Of a stretch of DNA of 64,000 bases, positions 9,702 to 60,106 are shown piece after piece. Origin of the DNA: a virus; the IMG/VR virus record IMGVR_UViG_3300002835_000007, positions 25,748 through 89,747 of that record; one strand, written 5' to 3'. The notes beneath the pieces were generated by a model that was not told the DNA's origin, searched no databases, and worked only from the letters and a program-made list of their open reading frames with translations. Position numbers and translations under genes: made by a program. Numbering within the stretch: position 1 is the first letter of the stretch; each line of letters begins with the position of its first letter.

Positions 9702-11282
9702 ATGAAATTTAAAGAATTAACGGATGAAGTAATCGAAAAAGCAAGACAAATCTACACTGATAAAAGTATCAGTTGGGACAATAGAATGTCACTGTTAACA
9801 AATTTACTTGGTCGTTCAGAAAGAACTGTTCGCAAATGGTGTTCAGAGAAACTAGGGTTTAAAGAAAAAGCTGAAGTAGAACCAGAACAATACACCCAAG
9901 CAAAAAGCAAAGTGTTTGATAAAGAAAAGAAAAGATTTATCATTACATGGGCCCAAAACAACACTCCAATACATGCTAAATTTCTTAAAAACATTGAGAA
10001 ATATGCTGAATTTATTGAAGCTGACATTCATGTTATTGCTGGACGATATAAAAACCCTACTAGTGTATGGTCTGCTGAACAAGAAAATGAAGAGTTTTGG
10101 GATGAAAGAGTTGTAAAATACTTAGATGCTAACAGACATGATATACACAAATATTTGTCTATATTATCTGATATTAAAATACCACCTACAGCGGTTAACC
10201 CTATGACTGGTATGCAAGCATTAAGTGGTGTCAATTCATGTGTTTTTGGTAGCCCTAAAGTGCAAATGGAGATGATTCCAGTGTTAGATGGTAACGCACC
10301 TAAAATGATGTTAACAACTGGTGCTGTAACGATGCAAAACTATACTGATTCAAAATCTGGTAAAGTTGGTGAGTTCCACCATACATTTGGGTTTGTTGTT
10401 GTTGAAATCAAAGATAATGAAATTTTCTTTGTTAGACAAGTAACTGCTGATGATAAGAATGGTAACTTTTCAGACCTATATTATAGAGTTGAAAATGGGT
10501 TAATCAAACCTATTAAAACAATGGAAGCCATCATATTAGGTGATTTACATTGTGGTCATCATGACATAGATGTGTTGAACACAACAATTAATATGATGTA
10601 TAAAATATTACCTAAACACGTAATATTACATGACGTATTTGATGGAGATTCTATTAGTCATCACCAAATGAAAGACCCATTTGTTCAATATGGTAAAGAA
10701 GTGCAAGGTACTAATGATTTAGGTAAGGAAATCGATGATATGATGGTTATATTAGATAACTTTAAAGAGTTTGAAAATGTAGTTATTGTTCGTTCAAACC
10801 ATGATGACTTTGTTGACCGATGGTTAAAGAATGAAGATTGGAAAAAACAACCTACATTTAAAAACGCACCATTGTATATGGACTTGAGTGCTAGACTTTT
10901 AAGACAATATGCAACTGGTGATGAAGTGATTGGTGTTATTCCAGAATTAATCAAAGAAAGATTCCCTAAGTTTAAAACATTGGGTAGAAGTGCTTCTTAT
11001 AGAGTTAAAGATTGGGAGTTGGGACAGCATGGTGATATTGGTTCTAACGGAAGTAGAGGTTCTTTGTTACAGTTTAGAAAATTGAACACAAAGATTGTAG
11101 TTGGACATTACCATTCTCCAGGTCGTAAAGATGGTGCATTAGCAGTAGGAACTACGACAAGACTTAGAGTTGGGTACAATAATGGACCTAGTACATGGTT
11201 ACAAAGTCACGTTATTATACACAATGATGGTAGAGCACAACATATTAATTTTATTAATGGTGAATTTACAACATTTGGGTAA
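9702..11282 (+). CDS. metallophosphoesterase-domain protein (calcineurin/Mre11-SbcD-like motifs) with an N-terminal HTH-like region
   Basis: 526 aa; motifs in order ILGDLHCGHHD, HDVFDGD, IVRSNHDDF, GHYHSPG in the C-terminal half. The N-terminal roughly 280 aa are unassigned. Confidence 0.55.
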   Translation: MKFKELTDEVIEKARQIYTDKSISWDNRMSLLTNLLGRSERTVRKWCSEKLGFKEKAEVEPEQYTQAKSKVFDKEKKRFIITWAQNNTPIHAKFLKNIEKYAEFIEADIHVIAGRYKNPTSVWSAEQENEEFWDERVVKYLDANRHDIHKYLSILSDIKIPPTAVNPMTGMQALSGVNSCVFGSPKVQMEMIPVLDGNAPKMMLTTGAVTMQNYTDSKSGKVGEFHHTFGFVVVEIKDNEIFFVRQVTADDKNGNFSDLYYRVENGLIKPIKTMEAIILGDLHCGHHDIDVLNTTINMMYKILPKHVILHDVFDGDSISHHQMKDPFVQYGKEVQGTNDLGKEIDDMMVILDNFKEFENVVIVRSNHDDFVDRWLKNEDWKKQPTFKNAPLYMDLSARLLRQYATGDEVIGVIPELIKERFPKFKTLGRSASYRVKDWELGQHGDIGSNGSRGSLLQFRKLNTKIVVGHYHSPGRKDGALAVGTTTRLRVGYNNGPSTWLQSHVIIHNDGRAQHINFINGEFTTFG

Positions 11283-14537: not shown

Positions 14538-14573
14538 CCTTGACACTTTAAGAAAAAATACTTATTGTTGTGT

Positions 14574-15212
14574 ATGATTTTATTTATACAACAATATTTG
14601 TCGGAATACTACTATATTAAAACCAGTGAAGTTGGTAATGATGGAATTTATTCCATTATTGATGAAAGACGTATTCCGATACCATTCAATGGTGGCAAAC
14701 TCATAAAAGAGATTGTTACCATTTTTGGTTTAGAAGAAGATGTTTTAAAATCATATATAGAAAGTTGGGCTGTTTCAATAAAACCAGATGTAGATTTGGA
14801 ATTTTATTGGAAAACAACAGAAGACTTATTTGGTTTTCCAATTGCACACCAAATAGCAGCAACCACTATTGCTATGGATTTGGTTGCAGTACAACCGATG
14901 GACGGACCAAGAGGTGAGTTATTATATATGGATTTCCAATATGGTGTTGACACAGCAACTGGTGATTCACAAACAGTTACAGCAACAACTAGAAATGGTC
15001 GTGTTTATAATGAAGAAATATATAGACAGAGTTGGGGTGATATGGTAGCACAATTATCTGAAAACCAACAAAATCATATATTTGGAGAATTAGACCACCC
15101 AACACCAGCTATAAACATAACTGTAAATGATAGAGATGATTCGATAGTGTATAGTGCATTAAATAAATGGAAAGATATTATTGGGATATCTAGTAGAAAA
15201 TTTGGAGAATAG
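14574..15212 (+). CDS. hypothetical protein
   Basis: Track start 14565 is a TTG; ATG at 14574. Contains IAMDLVAVQPMDGPRGELLYMDF, which resembles the T4 gp23/gp24 signature (ICGVQPMNSPTGQVF). The protein is only about 212 aa. Confidence 0.45.
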   Translation: MILFIQQYLSEYYYIKTSEVGNDGIYSIIDERRIPIPFNGGKLIKEIVTIFGLEEDVLKSYIESWAVSIKPDVDLEFYWKTTEDLFGFPIAHQIAATTIAMDLVAVQPMDGPRGELLYMDFQYGVDTATGDSQTVTATTRNGRVYNEEIYRQSWGDMVAQLSENQQNHIFGELDHPTPAINITVNDRDDSIVYSALNKWKDIIGISSRKFGE

Positions 15213-25741: not shown

Positions 25742-26423
25742 TACCCACGGAAGAGATAAATGGAAAGATATTGTAGCGAAAGAACTAGAATCTAGTGATA
25801 GGATAGTTTTTATTGGTGATTACTTTGATACACATGATGACGTTACACCAGAACAACAATTATCTAACTTCAATGAGATAATTGAATTCAAGAAAGCAAA
25901 CATAGATAAGGTTATCCTTTTAATAGGTAACCATGACTTCCATTATTTAAGTGGCATTAACGAAAGTTATTCTGGTTTTCAGTATGGTTGGTCTAAACAA
26001 TTTAATGAAGTTTTAGAGTCTGCATTAGCTGACGGGTTGATGCAGATGTGTTATGTATATGATAAGTATGTATTCACGCATGCTGGTGTTACCAACACAT
26101 GGTGTGTAACTTATAGTGTAAACAGATTACCTAACAAGATAGAAGATTCCATCAACAATTTGTTTAAAACTAATAAGTATGCGTTTTATTTCCAAATGGG
26201 TGAGAACTATAGTCAAAGTGGTAATGATGTAACGCAGTCACCTATATGGGTAAGAATTCCATCATTGTTCAGAGATGGAGTGGATGACTTTACGTTTGTA
26301 GTTGGTCATAGCACACTTAAAGAGCTGACTATCACTGATAGATTAATTGGTATTGACACATTGGGTGTGACTGGAGAATACTTAGTTATTAACAACGAAA
26401 AAATTACGGCAGAAATGCCGTAA
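25719..26423 (+). CDS. PPP-family Ser/Thr protein phosphatase (lambda-phosphatase-like metallophosphatase)
   Basis: 234 aa; GDTHGR, GDYFD and GNHDFHY motifs. Confidence 0.7.
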   Translation: MKIVALGDTHGRDKWKDIVAKELESSDRIVFIGDYFDTHDDVTPEQQLSNFNEIIEFKKANIDKVILLIGNHDFHYLSGINESYSGFQYGWSKQFNEVLESALADGLMQMCYVYDKYVFTHAGVTNTWCVTYSVNRLPNKIEDSINNLFKTNKYAFYFQMGENYSQSGNDVTQSPIWVRIPSLFRDGVDDFTFVVGHSTLKELTITDRLIGIDTLGVTGEYLVINNEKITAEMP

Positions 26424-28318: not shown

Positions 28319-28347
28319 TTTTTGTAATATTTATAATAAAAAGAACT

Positions 28348-28731
28348 ATGAACAAGGAAGATATAAAAAAAATACTTAGAGAATCTATTTTTAGTTTAGG
28401 TGAAGCTGAAGAGCAATCACAAGGTGGTGATGATAAAGAAGTAGGACCTAAGAAAAAGAAAAAATTGGATGCTCAAGCTGTTGAGATTAAAAACAATGTC
28501 GGTCCAGGCAAGCCACTAAAATACACTCAAGTGTTAAGAGCTGCAAAGATTATAAAACCTGGTGATAGTGAAACTGATGTTGATACAAAGGTTAGTTTAT
28601 ACAGAAAAAAAATATTAAATAAGAGTGAAAAAATTGAAGGTAGTAAAGTAACTAGAAGTTTAAATCCTAAAGAAGCTGATAGTATTTACAAGGTAATTAA
28701 AAACCCAACTGCATTTAAAACTGCTGGTTAA
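28348..28731 (+). CDS. hypothetical basic protein
   Basis: 127 aa ORF followed by a strong terminator. Confidence 0.45.
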   Translation: MNKEDIKKILRESIFSLGEAEEQSQGGDDKEVGPKKKKKLDAQAVEIKNNVGPGKPLKYTQVLRAAKIIKPGDSETDVDTKVSLYRKKILNKSEKIEGSKVTRSLNPKEADSIYKVIKNPTAFKTAG

Positions 28732-43494: not shown

Positions 43495-43677
43495 ATGATT
43501 ACATTAACTATCTTGTGTATCCTATACACATTCTTCGCTTTTAGAAGATTTAAAACTATTTATGGTACTTATGATATTTTTCATAAACCACCAAAAGTTT
43601 GGACGATTGCTTTGGTTTTGACAACTGCTTGGTCAATAAGTTCTGGTATTGTTTTTTGTTTAATTTATTTACCATAA
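43495..43677 (+). CDS. small membrane protein
   Basis: 60 aa; two TM helices; ends at the bidirectional terminator. Confidence 0.4.
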   Translation: MITLTILCILYTFFAFRRFKTIYGTYDIFHKPPKVWTIALVLTTAWSISSGIVFCLIYLP

Positions 43678-43710
43678 AAAAAAGTGGAGACTTAATCTCC
43701 ACTTTTTTTT
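43675..43710. terminator. bidirectional rho-independent terminator between convergent transcription units
   Basis: A8-GTGGAGACTTAATCTCCAC-T8; A-run on one side and T-run on the other; sits between the plus gene ending 43677 and the minus gene ending 43712. Confidence 0.9.
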
Positions 43711-43711
43711 A

Positions 43712-45151
43712 TTAGTTTAATTCAAATGGTTGGTTGCCAAAGGTCAATTCGACACCACCAATTCCATGTTTTAAATTCAGACCTAAAGATGATGAGTTTA
43801 TGTTTCTTATAATTTCGGTTGCATCTTCTTGGCTAACGCCAGTGATTGCAATTGTATCATTTGTTGGGTTATTAATCGTTACTTTATCTCTAATTTGACT
43901 AGACATTAATGCTTTATATAAATTAGGCAATTTGAAATATAAGTTTGAGTTTGTATTTATTTTAATTTTTAATACTTGATTACGTCTAGCTTCTTCAGCT
44001 CTTTGTCTAGCTTCTTCCTCTTCTCTTTCTATACGTCTTGCTTCTTCTCGTTCAGCTCTTTTTCTAGCCTCTTCTTCATCAGCAATTCTTTTTTCCTCTT
44101 TAGATTCTTCAGCTCTAAGTTTGTCATAAATACCAGATTCACTATAATATTTGAATTTAACAAAGTTCTTTAATAAAGGGTTTGTTGCAATTTGTTCATC
44201 ATAAGTTCTATTATATAGATTTTCCCTCATGGTACCTTCTCTTGCATCTATATCACGTGGATTTCTTTCTGCATTTCTAACTAAGTTTTCAGCATAAGTT
44301 GGTTCTCTGAAAACTTTATCACGTAATTTTGTTAAAATTCCTTTTGCGATATCATCTTCTAATGGATTTTCTACACCTAATGCTGCTATTTCTCGTTTTA
44401 CTTTTTCAGTTAAATTTCTTAATTTAAAATTATCATCAAACATACTTAAAAAAACAAATTCTGCTTTTGGACGCATACTTTGAAGTAAATCTCTTTTATC
44501 ACTATATTGACTTTGTTCATCATTAGTCATTTCATATTCACCGTATATGATATAATCTCTAAGTTTCTCGTAATAACTAGTTAATGTTTTTAAAATTCTT
44601 ACATAGTCTTTAACTTCTCTTTCAGCTAATTTACGGTCTGTAATTAAACGGTTTAATCTGTTGAAAGCTTCTTTTCTATCTCTATCGTTATCATCAGTTA
44701 TAGGTGATGAATATAACATAATAAGACGTTTACCATCATTATGTTTTTCATTAATAAATTCATTTATTGCATCACGATTAGTTGCCATTATTCTTGCAGC
44801 TTGACCACCATTTAAAGTAGGGTACATAGTAATATTAGGTCCATTAATACTAAAACTAATTTCTAAAGCATAATCGTTTTCACCCATATATTCGATACCA
44901 ACATCAGTTAATTTACCATCATGTTGAAAAGAATATCTTTCTTTAAGATATATTTTTAAAAATACATTTAATAAACCATATTGTTCTGTTTTTATTTCAT
45001 ATTTAACAGTTCTATAATCATCGCCTTCATGTGCAATAGTATAAGGTGCTGCTTGACCGATTTCTGTCATTAACATTCTTTCAAAAATGAAATATTGCTC
45101 CAACCTCAAATTAGCTTCACGTATATTTTTCTTTTTATCAAATCTTCTCAT
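43712..45151 (-). CDS. paralogue family protein, long form (479 aa) with ER/K-rich single-helix segment
   Basis: Minus-strand ORF. N-terminus MRRFDKKKNIREANLRLEQ is shared with three neighbours. Conserved core (GQAARIMATNRDAINEF...KRLIMLYSSPITDD), a C-terminal module (RENLYNRTYDEQIATNPLLKNFVKFK...SGIYDKL), then EEARKRAEREEARRIEREEEEARQRAEEARR. Confidence 0.7.
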   Translation of the reverse strand: MRRFDKKKNIREANLRLEQYFIFERMLMTEIGQAAPYTIAHEGDDYRTVKYEIKTEQYGLLNVFLKIYLKERYSFQHDGKLTDVGIEYMGENDYALEISFSINGPNITMYPTLNGGQAARIMATNRDAINEFINEKHNDGKRLIMLYSSPITDDNDRDRKEAFNRLNRLITDRKLAEREVKDYVRILKTLTSYYEKLRDYIIYGEYEMTNDEQSQYSDKRDLLQSMRPKAEFVFLSMFDDNFKLRNLTEKVKREIAALGVENPLEDDIAKGILTKLRDKVFREPTYAENLVRNAERNPRDIDAREGTMRENLYNRTYDEQIATNPLLKNFVKFKYYSESGIYDKLRAEESKEEKRIADEEEARKRAEREEARRIEREEEEARQRAEEARRNQVLKIKINTNSNLYFKLPNLYKALMSSQIRDKVTINNPTNDTIAITGVSQEDATEIIRNINSSSLGLNLKHGIGGVELTFGNQPFELN

Positions 45152-45170
45152 TGTTTTATATTAGTTTAAA

Positions 45171-46166
45171 TTAATTTATTTCTTCAATATTTTTTATTGT
45201 TTTATTATCATAATAAACAATAGCTTTATATGCCTTAAATAAATCATAACCAGTTTTCTCATTAAAATATTGAAAAAAGTTTTTAGCCTCAGTTGCTGTT
45301 ACAGATTTTAATAGGTATTCCATATATTCAATACTACCTTGTTGTTTAGGCTCTAATTTACCTTTTTGTACAAAGAAACTATCTTTATCTTCATCGAACA
45401 TTTTTATAAATGCATTGTAGAAATCTTCATCATCCAAATCCATTGAACCACGTTTTATCACGTGAATCATTAAATTTGCTTTTTTCTCATAATTTTTCAT
45501 TTCATCAGATAACAAATCAACATTAAAGATACCAGAAAGACTACGTATTCTAAATTTTTTAAAGTTATTCATTATTTTTGACCTTTTAATTTCAATATCA
45601 TAATATAAATTATAAAGTTTTTCTCTTAAATCAGTTTCTTTTTTACCACCAGTTACTGGATATGAATAAACCACTACTAATCTTTTACCTTCTTGAATAG
45701 TTTTTTCTACCACTTCTAAAATTGCTGCTCTTACAGTTGCCATAATAGAAAAAACTTTGTTAGTATTTAATTCTGGGAAAGAAACGTTACCACTTTCATC
45801 TTTAAAAACTCCAAATGAAATATAAACACCAAAGATATCATCTGGTAAATTTTCACCTTCAAAACCTAATTCTCTAATTAATGATTCAAAATCTGGGTCA
45901 AAACCAGAATACAAACTCTTTGCTTTAATACTAATAGATACAAACATGTTCCACTCTGTTGATGGGTCTTCATCAGTTATCTCATTTTCATCTTTTGGTA
46001 CTTTAAAACCAACTCTATGACCCATACTGCCCCAATCACTTACCACTTCATATGGATACCCTTTTGAATCTGCGATTTCATTCAAGGTTATCATTTCAAA
46101 TAAACGGTCTTGTTCCAATCTTAAATTGGCTTCATGTATAATTTTCTTTTTATCAAATCTTCTCAT
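45171..46166 (-). CDS. paralogue family protein, short form (331 aa)
   Basis: MRRFDKKKIIHEANLRLEQ...; core KVFSIMATVRAAILEVVEKTIQEGKRLVVVYSYPVTGG; module REKLYNLYYDIEIKRSKIMNNFKKF...SGIFNVDLL. Confidence 0.7.
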   Translation of the reverse strand: MRRFDKKKIIHEANLRLEQDRLFEMITLNEIADSKGYPYEVVSDWGSMGHRVGFKVPKDENEITDEDPSTEWNMFVSISIKAKSLYSGFDPDFESLIRELGFEGENLPDDIFGVYISFGVFKDESGNVSFPELNTNKVFSIMATVRAAILEVVEKTIQEGKRLVVVYSYPVTGGKKETDLREKLYNLYYDIEIKRSKIMNNFKKFRIRSLSGIFNVDLLSDEMKNYEKKANLMIHVIKRGSMDLDDEDFYNAFIKMFDEDKDSFFVQKGKLEPKQQGSIEYMEYLLKSVTATEAKNFFQYFNEKTGYDLFKAYKAIVYYDNKTIKNIEEIN

Positions 46167-46172
46167 ATTGTT

Positions 46173-47168
46173 TTAATTATTTAAATAAGGGTCATTTACA
46201 TCAGAAATAATTTTATTACCATGTTTTATTTCAACTCCATTATTAACATCACTTTTAAGTTCTGCATTAAATTTTTCTCTAAATTTATTTAAAAATGTTT
46301 TAACACTTTCTTTTGATAACATTCTTATACTAGAATAGATGTATGTTCTACCATTAACTTCAGAAAAGTTTACATTCAAATTTGGATAAGTATTGTTATC
46401 ATTTAACACATCTAAATATTTCCAAAATTTATTATATAATTCTTCATCACCATCTTTAAAAATTGTAACTTCAAAAGGTTTTGAATCCAATGTTTTAACA
46501 TTAGCATGAACACTATCATTAGGTTTTAATAAATCAGCATTATAAATCCCACTATACCCCCCATAATTGAATTTTTTGAATCGACTTAATATTTTTGACC
46601 TTTTAATTTCCATATCGAAATATGTATTATAAAGTTTTTCTCTTAAATAACCATCTTTACCACCAGATAATGGATATGACCATATTATTAATAATTGTTT
46701 ATTATCAGCAAGTTGTCTCAAAATAAATTCATTAATTGCTGCTTTTACAGTTCCCATAATAGACAAAACTCTTCTACCTTTTAATTCTGGGTAATGCGTA
46801 GTATCATATTCATCAATCACACCAAATGATACTTCAATACCAAATATGTTATTTGGTAAATTGTTAAACGTTTCAGTATCGTTATCGATTATTCTAAGTA
46901 TAAAGTTTTCAAGACCTAATTTATTTCTACCATCAACACTTATATACATATTCCATTCTGTTGACGGGTCTATAGCAGTTATCTCATTTTCATCTTTTGG
47001 TACTTTAAAACTTACTTTATATCCATTAGAACCCCAATCTTTTAATATTTCATATGGATATCCTTTTGAATCTGCGATTTCATTTAAGTCTATCATTTCA
47101 AATAAACGGTTAGCTTCTAATCTCAAGTTAGCTTCAAATATATTTTTCTTTTTATCAAATTTTCTCAT
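46173..47168 (-). CDS. paralogue family protein, short form (331 aa)
   Basis: MRKFDKKKNIFEANLRLEA...; core RVLSIMGTVKAAINEFILRQLADNKQLLIIWSYPLSGG; module REKLYNTYFDMEIKRSKILSRFKKF...SGIYNADLL. Confidence 0.7.
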   Translation of the reverse strand: MRKFDKKKNIFEANLRLEANRLFEMIDLNEIADSKGYPYEILKDWGSNGYKVSFKVPKDENEITAIDPSTEWNMYISVDGRNKLGLENFILRIIDNDTETFNNLPNNIFGIEVSFGVIDEYDTTHYPELKGRRVLSIMGTVKAAINEFILRQLADNKQLLIIWSYPLSGGKDGYLREKLYNTYFDMEIKRSKILSRFKKFNYGGYSGIYNADLLKPNDSVHANVKTLDSKPFEVTIFKDGDEELYNKFWKYLDVLNDNNTYPNLNVNFSEVNGRTYIYSSIRMLSKESVKTFLNKFREKFNAELKSDVNNGVEIKHGNKIISDVNDPYLNN

Positions 47169-47177
47169 TGTTTTATT

Positions 47178-48617
47178 TTAATTATTTGGAACGTCAAATG
47201 GTTGACCCCCATAAGTTATTTCTACATGGTCTTGACCATTATTAAAGTCAGAGTTTAAAGCTGCTCTTATTTCTCTAACTATGCTTTCAGCAACATTTCT
47301 ATCAATATCTTTTATCTCTATAGAATTACCAATAGTACTTAAAAGATGGTTTAAAGATGGACGATTCCTCTTTAAACTATTTAAAACACTAATTAATCTA
47401 CTGTTATCTGAATTTAAATCATATAAACTAGATTGTTCACCTATTTTAATTATTAACTTTTGAGCGTTTAATGCATTTGTTATATCGGCATCAATTTCTG
47501 CATTAGTCTTTACTGGTTTGTCTTCACCAACAGCTTTAAGATAATCATAGATACCTATCTCACCACCTTTCTTGAATTTCACAAAGTTTTTTAATAATGA
47601 GTTTGACGCAATTTGTTCATCAAAATATTTATTGTATAAACGTTCTCTCATAGAACTTTCATCTGCTGGTAAAGCTGTTGATGATACTGGAGCGTTAGCA
47701 ACTAAATTTTGAATATAATCTACATCGGTTGAATCTATTTTATCACGTAAAAAACGTAATACTGAAAAATAAGTTTTAATGTTAATAATATCTTCATTGT
47801 CACCCTCTTGAGTTTGTGTTGCAGCTTCTCTTTTTGCTTGTTTTAGTAAATTATCTAAATTATATTGTTTATCATATAAACATAACAAGATTCCTTTTTT
47901 TGAACCAGCAATATTAAGATTATTAATAAAAGTCTGAGTATTATTCTCATATTTTTCACTTTCATCACCAGTCATTTTAGGACGATATTCACCGTCAATT
48001 AATATTGCTCTAAAAATAATTTCATAATAATAATCCAATAATTTTTGAATTTTAACATAATTTCTAACCTCTCTTTCAGAAACTGGTCTATTATTCGAAA
48101 CATAACCTTTTAAAGTGTCTATAGCCCTTTCTCTAGCCTTATCATTATTATCTTCAACTGGAGATGAAAATACCATAATTAGACGATAACCTTTAGCTGC
48201 CATCTCATCAATATATTCACTAGTAGCTTTAGTGTTTGTCGCCATGATTTGTGCTGCTTGAGAGTTTATTGTACCGTAAGTACTAATATTACTCTTTTCA
48301 GTTGTTTTAACACCAAAACTAATACCAATACAATAATCTTTTTCATCCATTTCTTCAATACCAACACGGTCAAATCTATATTCTAGTCTGTTAAAATCAC
48401 TTTTAAAATATTTAGAAATAGTTAATTCCATAGTTACTAAACCATATTGTTCTGTTTTTATTTCATATCTAACGTTTCTATAACCGTCATCTTCATATGA
48501 AATAGTATAAGGTGCTGCTTCACCAATTTCTGTCATTAACATTCTTTCAAAAACAAATTCTTGCTCTAATCTCAAATTGGCTTCACGTATAATCTTCTTT
48601 TTGTCAAATCTTCTCAT
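47178..48617 (-). CDS. paralogue family protein, long form (479 aa)
   Basis: MRRFDKKKIIREANLRLEQEFVFERMLMTEIGEAAPYTI... is near-identical at the 5' nucleotide level to 43712..45151. Core SQAAQIMATNTKATSEY...YRLIMVFSSPVEDN; module RERLYNKYFDEQIASNSLLKNFVKFK...IGIYDYL. Confidence 0.7.
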   Translation of the reverse strand: MRRFDKKKIIREANLRLEQEFVFERMLMTEIGEAAPYTISYEDDGYRNVRYEIKTEQYGLVTMELTISKYFKSDFNRLEYRFDRVGIEEMDEKDYCIGISFGVKTTEKSNISTYGTINSQAAQIMATNTKATSEYIDEMAAKGYRLIMVFSSPVEDNNDKARERAIDTLKGYVSNNRPVSEREVRNYVKIQKLLDYYYEIIFRAILIDGEYRPKMTGDESEKYENNTQTFINNLNIAGSKKGILLCLYDKQYNLDNLLKQAKREAATQTQEGDNEDIINIKTYFSVLRFLRDKIDSTDVDYIQNLVANAPVSSTALPADESSMRERLYNKYFDEQIASNSLLKNFVKFKKGGEIGIYDYLKAVGEDKPVKTNAEIDADITNALNAQKLIIKIGEQSSLYDLNSDNSRLISVLNSLKRNRPSLNHLLSTIGNSIEIKDIDRNVAESIVREIRAALNSDFNNGQDHVEITYGGQPFDVPNN

Positions 48618-48730
48618 TAATAAATTATTTATTTATAAATATAACAAATTATTGTATAAATGGAATATTATTTGTAAATTTGTATCATTAAATTAATATT
48701 TATGACGCAAGAAGAATATAAAGAATTAGT

Positions 48731-48988
48731 ATGGGAAAGATATTAACAGCAGAAGAGTTTTTAATCATTAATGATGATAAAGATTTTAGATTATCAATGT
48801 CGGGTAGATATGTTTCTGAAATGATGATTGCATTTGCTAAAGTTCATGTAGAAGCTGCATTGAAAGAAGCAAGTGAGAATGCTGAAACAGAGGAAGGAAT
48901 AGGTAATCCTTATGACCCAAACGACATATATTATGTAGTAGATAAAGATTCAATCTTAAATAGTTACCCATTAACTAATATAAAATAG
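48731..48988 (+). CDS. hypothetical protein
   Basis: 85 aa ORF; divergent from the minus-strand cassette. Confidence 0.45.
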   Translation: MGKILTAEEFLIINDDKDFRLSMSGRYVSEMMIAFAKVHVEAALKEASENAETEEGIGNPYDPNDIYYVVDKDSILNSYPLTNIK

Positions 48989-59728: not shown

Positions 59729-60106
59729 ATGAAACGAATTAAAGTTAGATTCAATTTAGGTAGAGGTAAGAACTTTATGAAATGGAAAGTTCAATACCCT
59801 AATGGTGAAGTTGAATATTATGACCCTACAAGCACTCAATTGGTGATGGTGAATTGTCAGTTAGGCAACCATAAGAAAGTCGCTGAAAAGATTTATAATG
59901 GGGGTGAAAAAGTTGTGTGTGCGTGGGTATTGTGTGAATCAATTGTGATTAACACAAATAAGTTTTTACAACTTGATACCTATTGTCATAGAATTAAATA
60001 CAATCCAAGGGTGCAACCAAATTGGTTGTTAAATGGTGAAGTAGTGGATAATCAAAAGTATGAACAAATTGGTAGTGTTGATTTTGGTTTATATAAAATA
60101 ATATAA
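59729..60106 (+). CDS. hypothetical protein
   Basis: 125 aa ORF. Confidence 0.45.
   Translation: MKRIKVRFNLGRGKNFMKWKVQYPNGEVEYYDPTSTQLVMVNCQLGNHKKVAEKIYNGGEKVVCAWVLCESIVINTNKFLQLDTYCHRIKYNPRVQPNWLLNGEVVDNQKYEQIGSVDFGLYKII

Follow-up and report, generated by a model that had tools for sequence, protein, structure and literature searches.

A 30-residue N-terminal leader on four tandem paralogues and at least 21 other, unrelated protein families of uncultured phages: a candidate capsid-targeting propeptide of the T4 type

Introduction

Why do four adjacent viral proteins keep almost the same first residues when the rest of their sequences have diverged, and what could such a set do for the virus? 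The question is raised by an island of four paralogous genes, A to D, on the minus strand of a 64,000-nucleotide stretch of an uncultured virus (IMG/VR record IMGVR_UViG_3300002835_000007, positions 25,748 to 89,747; hereafter the window). A preliminary description of this DNA had likened the shared start to the capsid-targeting sequences (CTS) of internal proteins that phages inject into their host. We found that the start belongs to a leader of 30 residues, which is carried as a portable module by otherwise unrelated proteins. We favor, with slightly more belief than doubt, the reading in which this leader is a T4-type capsid-targeting propeptide, cut after Glu by a gp21-type prohead protease and loading an enzyme-like cargo for injection.

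Results

A leader shared by unrelated proteins

The leader of D is encoded by codons 1-30 at 48528-48617 on the minus strand (MRRFDKKKIIREANLRLEQEFVFERMLMTE), and the corresponding segments of A, B and C occupy 45062-45151, 46077-46166 and 47079-47168 on the same strand. A DNA pattern for MRRFDKK(K/N) was scanned in IMG/VR and in the JGI metagenomes, returning 9 and 41 loci respectively, and 54 distinct leader proteins were gathered from the window, IMG/VR and the metagenomes. Their alignment gave the consensus MRRFDKK.NI.KANLLAEQRYL.SKGLI.E, or, as a looser pattern, MRRFDKK.NI..ANL..E...L......[LIVM].E. Once the first 30 residues were removed, the bodies of these proteins fell into 22 clusters showing no mutual BLASTP similarity at E<1e-4. 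The leader is thus a short N-terminal sequence on otherwise unrelated proteins, as is a T4-type CTS.

Within the leader, D5, K6, N14 and E18 were invariant in the cluster representatives (22/22), and E30 was present in 18 of the 22. The information content stayed at about 3-4 bits through position 30 and fell from about 3.3 to about 1 bit, the small-sample background, from residue 31. The leader has the features of a basic amphipathic helix (pI 8.2-10) and appeared in both AlphaFold models as a detached, low-confidence helix ahead of the folded domain. Two or three leader genes with differing bodies stand in tandem in contigs L012, L014, L028, L055 and L059. A profile search recovered the same leader on unrelated bodies (P0029, P0036) and, conversely, distant homologues of the bodies lacking the leader (P0020, P0022-P0024, P0030). 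By these comparisons, the leader is a portable module, found on 22 cargo families that are not related to one another.

Within the window, no leader was found beyond A-D. The leader was also absent from a set of one genome per bacterial species, where the six matches to the DNA pattern were all chance occurrences of MRRFDKK without the leader and thus gave no host or prophage clue. A leader profile search of a 5.8-billion-protein collection, in which 62 candidates were gathered, returned short or fragmentary proteins only. A second cargo family (L064) had no match in 50,697 deposited phages, and the string MRRFDKK was absent from the papers of the library searched. The leader was also considered as a twin-arginine translocation signal (RRxFLK), a reading rejected for its wrong register and for the absence of a hydrophobic segment after the motif.

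Two further loci concern the relation between leader and body. The window ORF (open reading frame) 59729-60103, on the plus strand, encodes a leaderless protein of 125 aa. Its homologue (28% identity, E = 3e-11) is the body of a leader-bearing protein of 283 aa present in L028 (7758-8606, minus strand) and in L063; the same domain therefore occurs with and without the leader. In L017, a 133-kb phage contig, a leader ORF of 33 aa is split from a 337-aa body by a one-base slip in a run of A (TCGAAAAGG, within 10001-11108), which would be due to an error of assembly, or else mark a true frameshift or a pseudogene. The same origin may hold for several "leader-only" database proteins of 29-69 aa.

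The end of the leader is a candidate protease site

The CTS of T4 has the sequence MKTYQEFIAE, and the prohead protease of this phage prefers Leu or Ile at P3. In almost all the leaders collected, residues 28-30 are [LIVM]-x-E, and most of them also have L/I-x-E at positions 16-18. The leaderless homologues of the bodies retain LLKE, LLNE, LINE or LIDE at the position where the leader would end. E30, and E18 with it, are therefore proposed here as candidate cleavage positions; the prohead proteases of T4, phiKZ, 201phi2-1 and SPN3US all cleave after Glu (PMC5694885). The site I10-x-E12|A13, resembling T4 IAE|A and SPN3US AxE-12, was considered as the main cleavage site and dropped, since P0010 and two genes of L001/L003 have Ala at position 12, where most of the wider family has Lys.

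A late-type promoter motif precedes the leader genes

A motif of the late promoter type, ATATTTATAAATAAA, lies at 48628-48642 on the minus strand and ends about 10 nt 5' of the ATG of D. It includes TATAAATA, the consensus of T4 late promoters (PMC1524935). Its core, TATTTATAAATA, is palindromic and has no other exact copy in the window; it stands 12 nt ahead of the ATG of D. The same motif was found 8-16 nt ahead of the ATG of the first leader gene in at least 10 unrelated contigs. It also stands before virion genes in L018, L013 and L008; among the leader-bearing contigs, the genes that it precedes include one for a head structural protein (PHROG 1645, E = 4e-130), one for the tail tube (E = 2e-27) and one that is T4-baseplate-like. 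In the cultured Flavobacterium phage vB_FspM_immuto (hereafter immuto), the motif stands ahead of the portal gene and of other virion genes, with three copies in the 19.5 kb virion region against one in 50 kb of the early/replication region. A generic sigma-70 promoter scan was uninformative in this AT-rich DNA, giving 53 sites where 48.6 were expected.

Apart from the copy ahead of D, the late-promoter 14-mer occurs just once in the window, as TATTTATAATAAAA at 28328-28341. It is followed by the ORF 28348-28731 (plus strand), whose lysine-rich, low-complexity product of 127 aa begins MNKEDIKKILRESIFSLGE|AEEQ, a short N-terminus ending in L-x-E|A. In composition and start, this product has the look of a small basic internal head protein of the classical kind. 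N-termini of a second class, M..[IL]K.LLRE.L[LI].E or MNKKLIITE.QY.KL..LLE..F.E, also terminate in [LI]-x-E. This class was observed on the leaderless bodies P0020, P0022-P0024 and P0030, which are GNAT-like, and it also heads late-promoter genes at L018 4318-5079, L008 6410-7846 and L009 7972-9729; it may be an alternative targeting leader.

Leader genes occur in phages with a T4-type capsid

Virion genes predominate among the neighbors of leader genes, with tail tube (five loci), tail sheath (four loci) and baseplate hub genes (two loci), and major head protein, portal and head closure genes in one locus each. Contig L053, whose leader is of the same EANLRLE subtype as in the window, encodes a Gp23 capsid protein (Pfam, E = 5e-72). 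The capsid gene is preceded by that of a very acidic, scaffold-like protein of 399 aa (L053 2302-3498), and the capsid protein's N-terminal region includes TTLINE|TST. The closest cultured capsids are those of Rhodothermus phage RM378 and of immuto. The gene order of immuto is that of T4, i.e. portal, S77 (gp21-type) protease, acidic protein and Gp23. Gene 199 of immuto (L068 5608-6690), located after the portal gene and before that of the protease, encodes a protein of 360 aa that begins MRTLQEKYNAIQEGKFSKEHFIAE|A; this start resembles the T4 sequence MKTYQEFIAE|A, and immuto may therefore use a T4-like CTS.

The window itself holds a link to the same lineage. Beside the IF3 gene, a 215-aa ORF with a TTG start (14565-15212, plus strand) appears as a Gp23/gp21 chimera. 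The N-terminal portion of Gp23, the T4 major capsid protein, is matched by residues 92-145 (PF07068, 29.5 bits, cutoff 24.4), and residues 106-183 show 36% identity to the N-terminal part of the immuto gp21-type protease, including GELDHP. The ORF spans the N-terminal 45% of a gp21-type protease and stops before the region of the catalytic Ser. This chimera ties the phage of the window to the T4 lineage. It may act as a "cryptic protease" or a decoy, in analogy to a truncated paralogue of the protease reported for SPN3US.

The window derives from an uncultured, AT-rich phage of the T4 morphogenetic superfamily, probably with a Bacteroidota host. The intergenic stretches 45152-45170, 46167-46172 and 47169-47177, which precede the internal genes of the island, are A-rich, with AAAACA(AT), and lack a Shine-Dalgarno sequence. 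Such starts are typical of Bacteroidota, in agreement with the hosts of the closest cultured capsid relatives, Flavobacterium and Rhodothermus.

The 5' conservation follows the peptide

According to the preliminary description, the first nucleotides of the four genes were nearly identical, which suggested ongoing gene conversion or recombination. Over the first 20 codons, the pairs of A-D showed 77-88% nucleotide identity and 75-90% amino acid identity, against 52-64% nucleotide identity for the whole genes. The 5' ends are thus more alike than the rest of the genes, as had been noted, but they are similar rather than nearly identical, with synonymous differences in 8 of the first 18 codons. 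This excess, together with the near invariance of the first four codons across leaders, could be explained at the level of DNA, the 5' ends being kept by gene conversion or as a translation or recombination signal and not for the function of the peptide. Against this explanation, the fraction of identical residues encoded by the same codon was 0.75-0.79 in the leader and 0.67-0.79 gene-wide, so that codon sharing is no higher in the leader. In 26 leader DNAs from many contigs, third codon positions vary freely, and conserved residues are encoded by alternative codons (D5, GAT 20 and GAC 6; K7, AAG 18 and AAA 7; A13, GCT 11 and GCC 8; L15, TTG 10 and TTA 11; E18, GAG 10 and GAA 14). The invariance of codons 2-4 fits the use of the preferred AT-rich codons AGA and TTT, and the leader is maintained between phages with unrelated flanking DNA. 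As the same-codon fraction equals the gene-wide value and third positions are free, selection appears to act on the peptide, with no sign of gene conversion at the 5' end. Judged from the codons, the 5' nucleotide identity reflects peptide conservation together with codon bias; the explanation at the DNA level is largely refuted and we consider it hardly credible.

A separate pattern was observed between B and C. In codons ~130-190 only 40-57% of the residues are shared, yet in overlapping windows of 30 codons the shared residues all use the same codon (12/12, 12/12 and 17/17, which are small numbers), against a gene-wide value of 0.79. Fast amino acid change on a young duplicate, with diversifying selection around alpha3-beta5-alpha4, is a possible explanation.

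The island genes are an undescribed family with variable copy number

Searches of A-D against Pfam, PHROG, NCBIfam and PADLOC returned sub-threshold noise and no family match, so that the family is indeed undescribed, as the preliminary description had supposed. The island and gene D, queried by megablast and tblastn, had no match among 50,697 deposited phages. The 5.8-billion-protein collection contained 8 relatives of D and 12 of B, none with a name, and an exhaustive profile search over 1.84 billion cluster representatives recovered only 25 relatives. A profile search against PDB sequences returned no acetyltransferase, only de novo designed proteins and a ribosomal protein, which were judged compositional matches.

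A survey of the locus in relatives showed that copy number is not invariant, with one, three, four or at least four copies. The order D-C-B-A is found in the window, L001 and L002; L006 and L007 carry D, one short form and A; L004, L005 and L066 carry a lone A-type gene, still inverted with respect to its neighbors; and L003 has at least four genes in tandem. The A-type gene is the form retained when relatives have a single copy. The first gene of the L003 array (1-990), a member of the short-form family, has NVSTPPKPKQLNPLVDKYTYAITSPP in place of the leader, running to the contig edge; the assembly may be chimeric here, or this member may have had its N-terminus exchanged.

Domain layout of the four paralogues

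The four proteins can be aligned over their full length, with amino acid identities of 45% for A/D, 47% for B/C and 32-37% between long and short forms. Their alignments confirmed both the shared N-terminus, MR(R/K)FDKKK.I.EANLRLE, and the conserved core, with the motifs IMAT/IMGT, (Y/W/F)S.P and RE.LYN in all four. The common layout runs from the leader (1-30) through an N-terminal core and the RE.LYN helix to two strands and a C-terminal alpha/beta domain. In B, a GNAT-like core (37-215) is followed by a ferredoxin-like domain (225-325). In A, the leader (1-30) and the GNAT-like core are followed by a helical insertion of ~140 aa, the RE.LYN helix (alpha4) at 309, an ER/K helix (344-390) and the C-terminal alpha/beta domain. 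The insertion, placed between core and RE.LYN, accounts for the extra length of both A and D.

Some features of the preliminary description needed to be corrected at this point. A second copy of the RE.LYN module had been assigned to the long forms; Smith-Waterman alignment of the module with the rest of the protein was no better than with shuffled sequences, and the module occurs once per protein (A309, B181, C176, D324). The ER/K stretch, also attributed to both long forms, is confined to A and its orthologues and is missing from D. In A it comprises residues 344-390 (KLRAEESKEEKRIADEEEARKRAEREEARRIEREEEEARQRAEEARR), which are predicted to form a single continuous helix resembling an ER/K single-alpha-helix spacer that joins the GNAT-like to the C-terminal domain. 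The C-terminal halves are divergent, as stated, but they are not unrelated payloads, being still alignable and having the same predicted alpha/beta domain in both AlphaFold models. Likewise, the idea of a constant N-terminus with a variable payload applies to the wider leader family and not to A-D, which are homologous from end to end.

The protein bodies resemble GNAT acyltransferases in predicted fold

The two-domain bodies were modeled by AlphaFold with a pLDDT (predicted local distance difference test) of ~80. The predicted structure displays the core of the GNAT fold, beta4-alpha3-beta5-alpha4-beta6 with a V-shaped cofactor cleft, in which alpha3 begins at IMAT and the RE.LYN module corresponds to helix alpha4. 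The invariant residues of the family (B numbering) are T144, where alpha3 starts, S168-x-P170, which follows beta5, and R181-E-x-L-Y185 within alpha4; on the secondary-structure map they would lie where GNATs hold their cofactor. The C-terminal domain was predicted as a generic ferredoxin-like alpha/beta fold.

Nevertheless, the island proteins are not established members of the GNAT superfamily, as no Acetyltransf/GNAT family of Pfam or NCBIfam matched A-D at E up to 1 and the motif A loop Q/R-x-x-G-x-G/A was absent from the alignments inspected. Between beta4 and alpha3, residues 122-134 of B form a longer, glycine-poor, low-confidence loop, after which comes the conserved S-I-M-A-T. The island proteins share 6-15% identity with any GNAT, and their N-terminal arm has a different order of elements. 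The GNAT acyl-CoA N-acyltransferases that they resemble include, besides toxins such as TacT, the enzymes of the Rtt109/p300 type. Compared with p300 and Rtt109, both of which carry long insertions between beta5 and alpha4, the long forms of the island have a large insertion at this position. The histone acetyltransferase (HAT)-like domain of O-GlcNAcase, a pseudo-enzyme, was among the structural matches, and by analogy the island proteins could be pseudo-enzymes. A Foldseek search against viral models returned only uncharacterized jumbo-phage proteins (Atu_ph07, Vibrio phages) and provided no functional lead. A match of the core to a well-known family would have told against the preliminary description; this holds in part only, the GNAT-like fold being well known but a distant structural resemblance and not a family assignment.

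Layout of the island and its surroundings

The ORF coordinates agree with the order long-short-short-long reported for the island. Gene D (47178-48617, minus strand, 479 aa), a long form and paralogue of A, is the first gene of the operon. It is followed by the short forms C (46173-47168, minus strand, 331 aa) and B (45171-46166, minus strand, 331 aa), paralogues of each other, and by A (43712-45151, minus strand, 479 aa), a long form and the fourth and last gene. The gaps A/B, B/C and C/D measure 19, 6 and 9 nt respectively. The two boundaries were also found as described. At one end, a bidirectional intrinsic terminator at approximately 43677-43711, A8-GTGGAGA-CTTAA-TCTCCAC-T8, has a GC-containing 7-bp stem and a 5-nt loop; the stem reaches 17 pairs in a terminator scan when the A/T runs are counted in. 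This hairpin closes the island operon as well as the plus-strand genes converging on it. At the other end, a divergent intergenic region of 113 nt (48618-48730) separates D from a plus-strand gene starting at 48731.

The inverted orientation of the island was borne out by the ORF list, in which A-D are the sole credible minus-strand genes among 45 ORFs of at least 150 aa, and by base composition, as the sign of the GC and AT skew flips only in the 44-48 kb bins of the window. One further minus-strand ORF of this size was discarded as spurious, being antisense within the RNase II/R gene. The best explanation is that the island is a separately regulated unit amid plus-strand accessory genes; a late unit within an accessory block of different timing would provide a simple reason for the strand inversion.

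The plus-strand genes of the window encode a NAPRTase-family enzyme, PRPP (phosphoribosyl pyrophosphate) synthetase, Sir2, NADAR, NUDIX, SmpB, IF3, RNase II/R, dCMP deaminase, HAD "Swiss Army Knife" RNA-repair domains, two sigma-70-type factors, two AAA ATPases, DUF932 and a T5 A1-like metallophosphoesterase (PHROG 1745), an accessory repertoire in the style of huge phages. The closest relatives of the RNase II/R belong to uncultured phages of 634-642 kb (47% identity). No tRNA genes were found in the window. In other contigs, large HNH homing-endonuclease genes are located within structural modules (L013 1218-2903, minus strand; L053 5315-6910, minus strand; PHROG 3339, E down to 1e-138), one between the tail tube and the leader gene and another beside the major capsid gene.

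Discussion

The likeness to capsid-targeting sequences on injected internal proteins, proposed at the outset, was strengthened by the 22 cargo families, the [LIVM]-x-Glu end, the late-type promoter and the Gp23 capsids of leader-bearing phages. A portable peptide with such an end and such a promoter, located in structural modules, in phages with a T4-type capsid and in variable tandem arrays, suggests a cargo that is loaded in the prohead. According to this model, the T4-late-type promoter ATATTTATAAATAAA would drive the transcription of D-C-B-A and the bidirectional hairpin would end the unit. The basic helical leader would dock each product on the scaffolding core during prohead assembly, and a gp21-type protease would then cut after [LIVM]-x-E30 and probably also after E18; cuts at both positions would leave small fragments able to exit the head. 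The acidic mature proteins (35 and 51-52 kDa) would stay inside the head and reach the host together with the DNA. As the bodies would combine a divergent GNAT/Rtt109-like acyltransferase fold with a small ferredoxin-like domain, the cargo would most likely be an enzyme, or a ligand-binding pseudo-enzyme, that acts at an early stage of infection on targets in the host. Duplication and loss would have given the one to at least four copies observed across relatives.

The CTS proteins of T4 (IPI, IPII, IPIII and Alt) share with the island a short conserved N-terminal peptide on unrelated proteins, genes that are clustered and highly variable between relatives, a hydrophobic-x-Glu at the end of the peptide, which in the island is a candidate prohead-protease site, the late-type promoter motif TATAAATA and a Gp23-type capsid, which among leader-bearing contigs is seen in L053, and the Alt cargo is a host-modifying enzyme (PMC3012670, PMC9958956, PMC5694885). 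The island leader differs in having 30 residues, against 10-20 in T4, and perhaps two Glu sites. It has no similarity to MKTYQEFIAE beyond the terminal hydrophobic-x-Glu, and all cargo families are different, the mature island proteins being acidic and of 35-52 kDa, unlike the small basic internal proteins (IPs) of T4.

A second parallel is offered by the ejection proteins of giant phages. The SPN3US paralogues gp53 and gp54, ejected from the head, are 34% identical and have an identical 15-residue N-terminus with A/S-x-E sites, and the number of ejection-protein paralogues varies between phages (PMC5694885). As in this family and in phiKZ gp93/94/95/162/163 (PF12699), the island genes are tandem paralogues of ~30-45% identity with a near-identical N-terminus containing x-x-Glu and with a copy number that differs widely between related phages, and the genome of the island has giant-phage features. 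In the SPN3US comparison, MANFVKSKLARE and MRRFDKKKNIRE have M1, F4, K6, K8, R11 and E12 in common, which is reported as an observation only. PF12699 did not match A-D at E up to 1. The propeptides of SPN3US are ~125 residues long, and the island leader, unlike them, spans 22 unrelated families and not a single paralogue family. Constant N-termini also occur in the MuF-domain polymorphic toxins of temperate phages, for which Jamet et al. 2017 reportedly proposed that the constant part carries a variable C-terminal effector into the capsid. What stays constant in these toxins is a complete MuF head-morphogenesis domain, several hundred residues long, against a peptide of 30, and no MuF domain was found in A-D by the Pfam scan. 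The targeting principle is thus already known and the system is not categorically new; undescribed are the leader family, its breadth and length, the GNAT-like cargo and the phage clade.

Several observations weigh against the capsid-targeting reading. The sole protease-like sequence of the window is the truncated Gp23/gp21 chimera, and this ORF was the only match when the immuto protease was used to look for an intact S77 protease on the leader-bearing contigs examined. The candidate sites of the window copies are not canonical for T4, P3 of E18 being Arg (NLRLE) and P3 of E30 being Met in A and D, and E12 of the I-x-E12|A site lacks conservation. With a pI of 5.0-5.8, the mature proteins (35 and 51-52 kDa) would be acidic, whereas the T4 IPs are basic. 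No cultured carrier of the leader was found: tblastn with the consensus gave no match in 50,697 deposited phage records, and the leader HMM (hidden Markov model) detected no leader in ~70 kb of immuto. TATAAATA by itself is not enriched in the AT-rich window, so that the promoter argument rests on the longer motif and on the genes that accompany it; joint expression of the operon with head genes is indicated by association only. Finally, targeting to the prohead, cleavage, injection and enzymatic activity of A-D are all steps that we infer.

Other functions of the leader would account for part of these data. The genes might be expressed late without entering the virion, with the leader serving as an uncleaved helix for docking, oligomerization or localization to a common partner in the producing cell (assembly factory, chaperone, membrane or nucleoid). 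The basic amphipathic nature of the leader, its predicted detachment from the body and the accessory metabolic genes around the island are in line with this possibility, the more so as the packaging of leader proteins is something we infer. We consider it unlikely, as one intracellular address is hard to reconcile with 22 unrelated proteins that share a virion-gene promoter and often a position in structural modules, and it leaves the strict [LIVM]-x-E junction unexplained. A somewhat less likely function is the loading of cargo into the lumen or baseplate of the contractile tail, from which it would be expelled on contraction as in extracellular contractile injection systems (eCIS). In L008, L009, L012, L040 and L042 the tail tube gene is directly 5' of the leader gene or genes, which lie between sheath/tube and baseplate-like genes, a position that fits tail loading and head loading equally and so also counts against the latter. 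Moreover, the payloads of Photorhabdus virulence cassettes (PVC), which are eCIS, have transplantable N-terminal signal peptides, are encoded near contractile-tail genes and are loaded into the tube with the AAA ATPase Pvc15 (PMC11495950), and the diversity of the leader-bearing cargo families resembles that of eCIS payloads. PVC are tailocin-like particles without capsids that depend on this dedicated ATPase, whereas leader-bearing contigs encode capsid genes (Gp23 capsid protein, portal). No ATPase adjoins the island in the ORF list, and no Pvc15-like ATPase was seen beside leader genes, in a search that was not aimed at Pvc15. In true phages the tape-measure protein fills the lumen of the tube. 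The leader genes of the window, L004 and L066 lie far from any tail gene. The conserved Glu residues within and at the end of the leader fit processing by a head protease and not the eCIS signals, for which we know of no conserved Glu-terminated motif.

The proteins could also be expendable components of the prohead core or scaffold, like T4 gp67, gp68 and gp22, degraded at maturation and never delivered. The promoter, the neighborhood and the protease motifs suit this role as well as that of a delivered cargo, several Glu-containing motifs lie inside the leader, and T4 core proteins and IPs enter the prohead by the same route (PMC9958956). We regard this role as very improbable: well-folded, enzyme-like two-domain bodies of 35-52 kDa (pLDDT ~80) are unlike scaffold proteins, the bodies are extremely diverse, the copy number is variable and dispensable, and L053 already has an acidic scaffold candidate.

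Conclusions

In a bolder and, in our view, unlikely extension of the capsid-targeting reading, the leader would be a general address label for the whole injected set of a large uncultured clade of the T4 superfamily, probably infecting Flavobacteria or other Bacteroidota of lakes and seas. If this were true, the four GNAT-like paralogues would be injected enzymes that acylate host targets, e.g. components of defence or translation, within seconds; leader searches in metagenomes would provide a direct catalogue of first-strike effectors and anti-defence proteins; and the leader could become a transplantable tag for packaging foreign proteins in these capsids. In a variant that would be stranger yet, the label would bring its cargo into the tail lumen of a true phage, in the manner of eCIS.

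Several of the most thoroughly understood factors for anti-defence and host takeover, T4 IPI*, Alt and the P1 Dar proteins among them, are carried in the head and injected. In uncultured phages such cargo is hard to recognize because its sequences are too diverse. A searchable leader of 30 residues, combined with a late promoter, would mark cargo in metagenomes, as suggested by the 22 cargo families retrieved with one DNA pattern. The leader is also a candidate tag for loading foreign proteins into capsids, a use to which the T4 CTS has already been put. A new class of injected GNAT-like enzymes is suggested by the island proteins, and the CTS principle, known from the T-even phages and the phiKZ-like giants, would also hold for T4-like phages that infect aquatic Bacteroidota.

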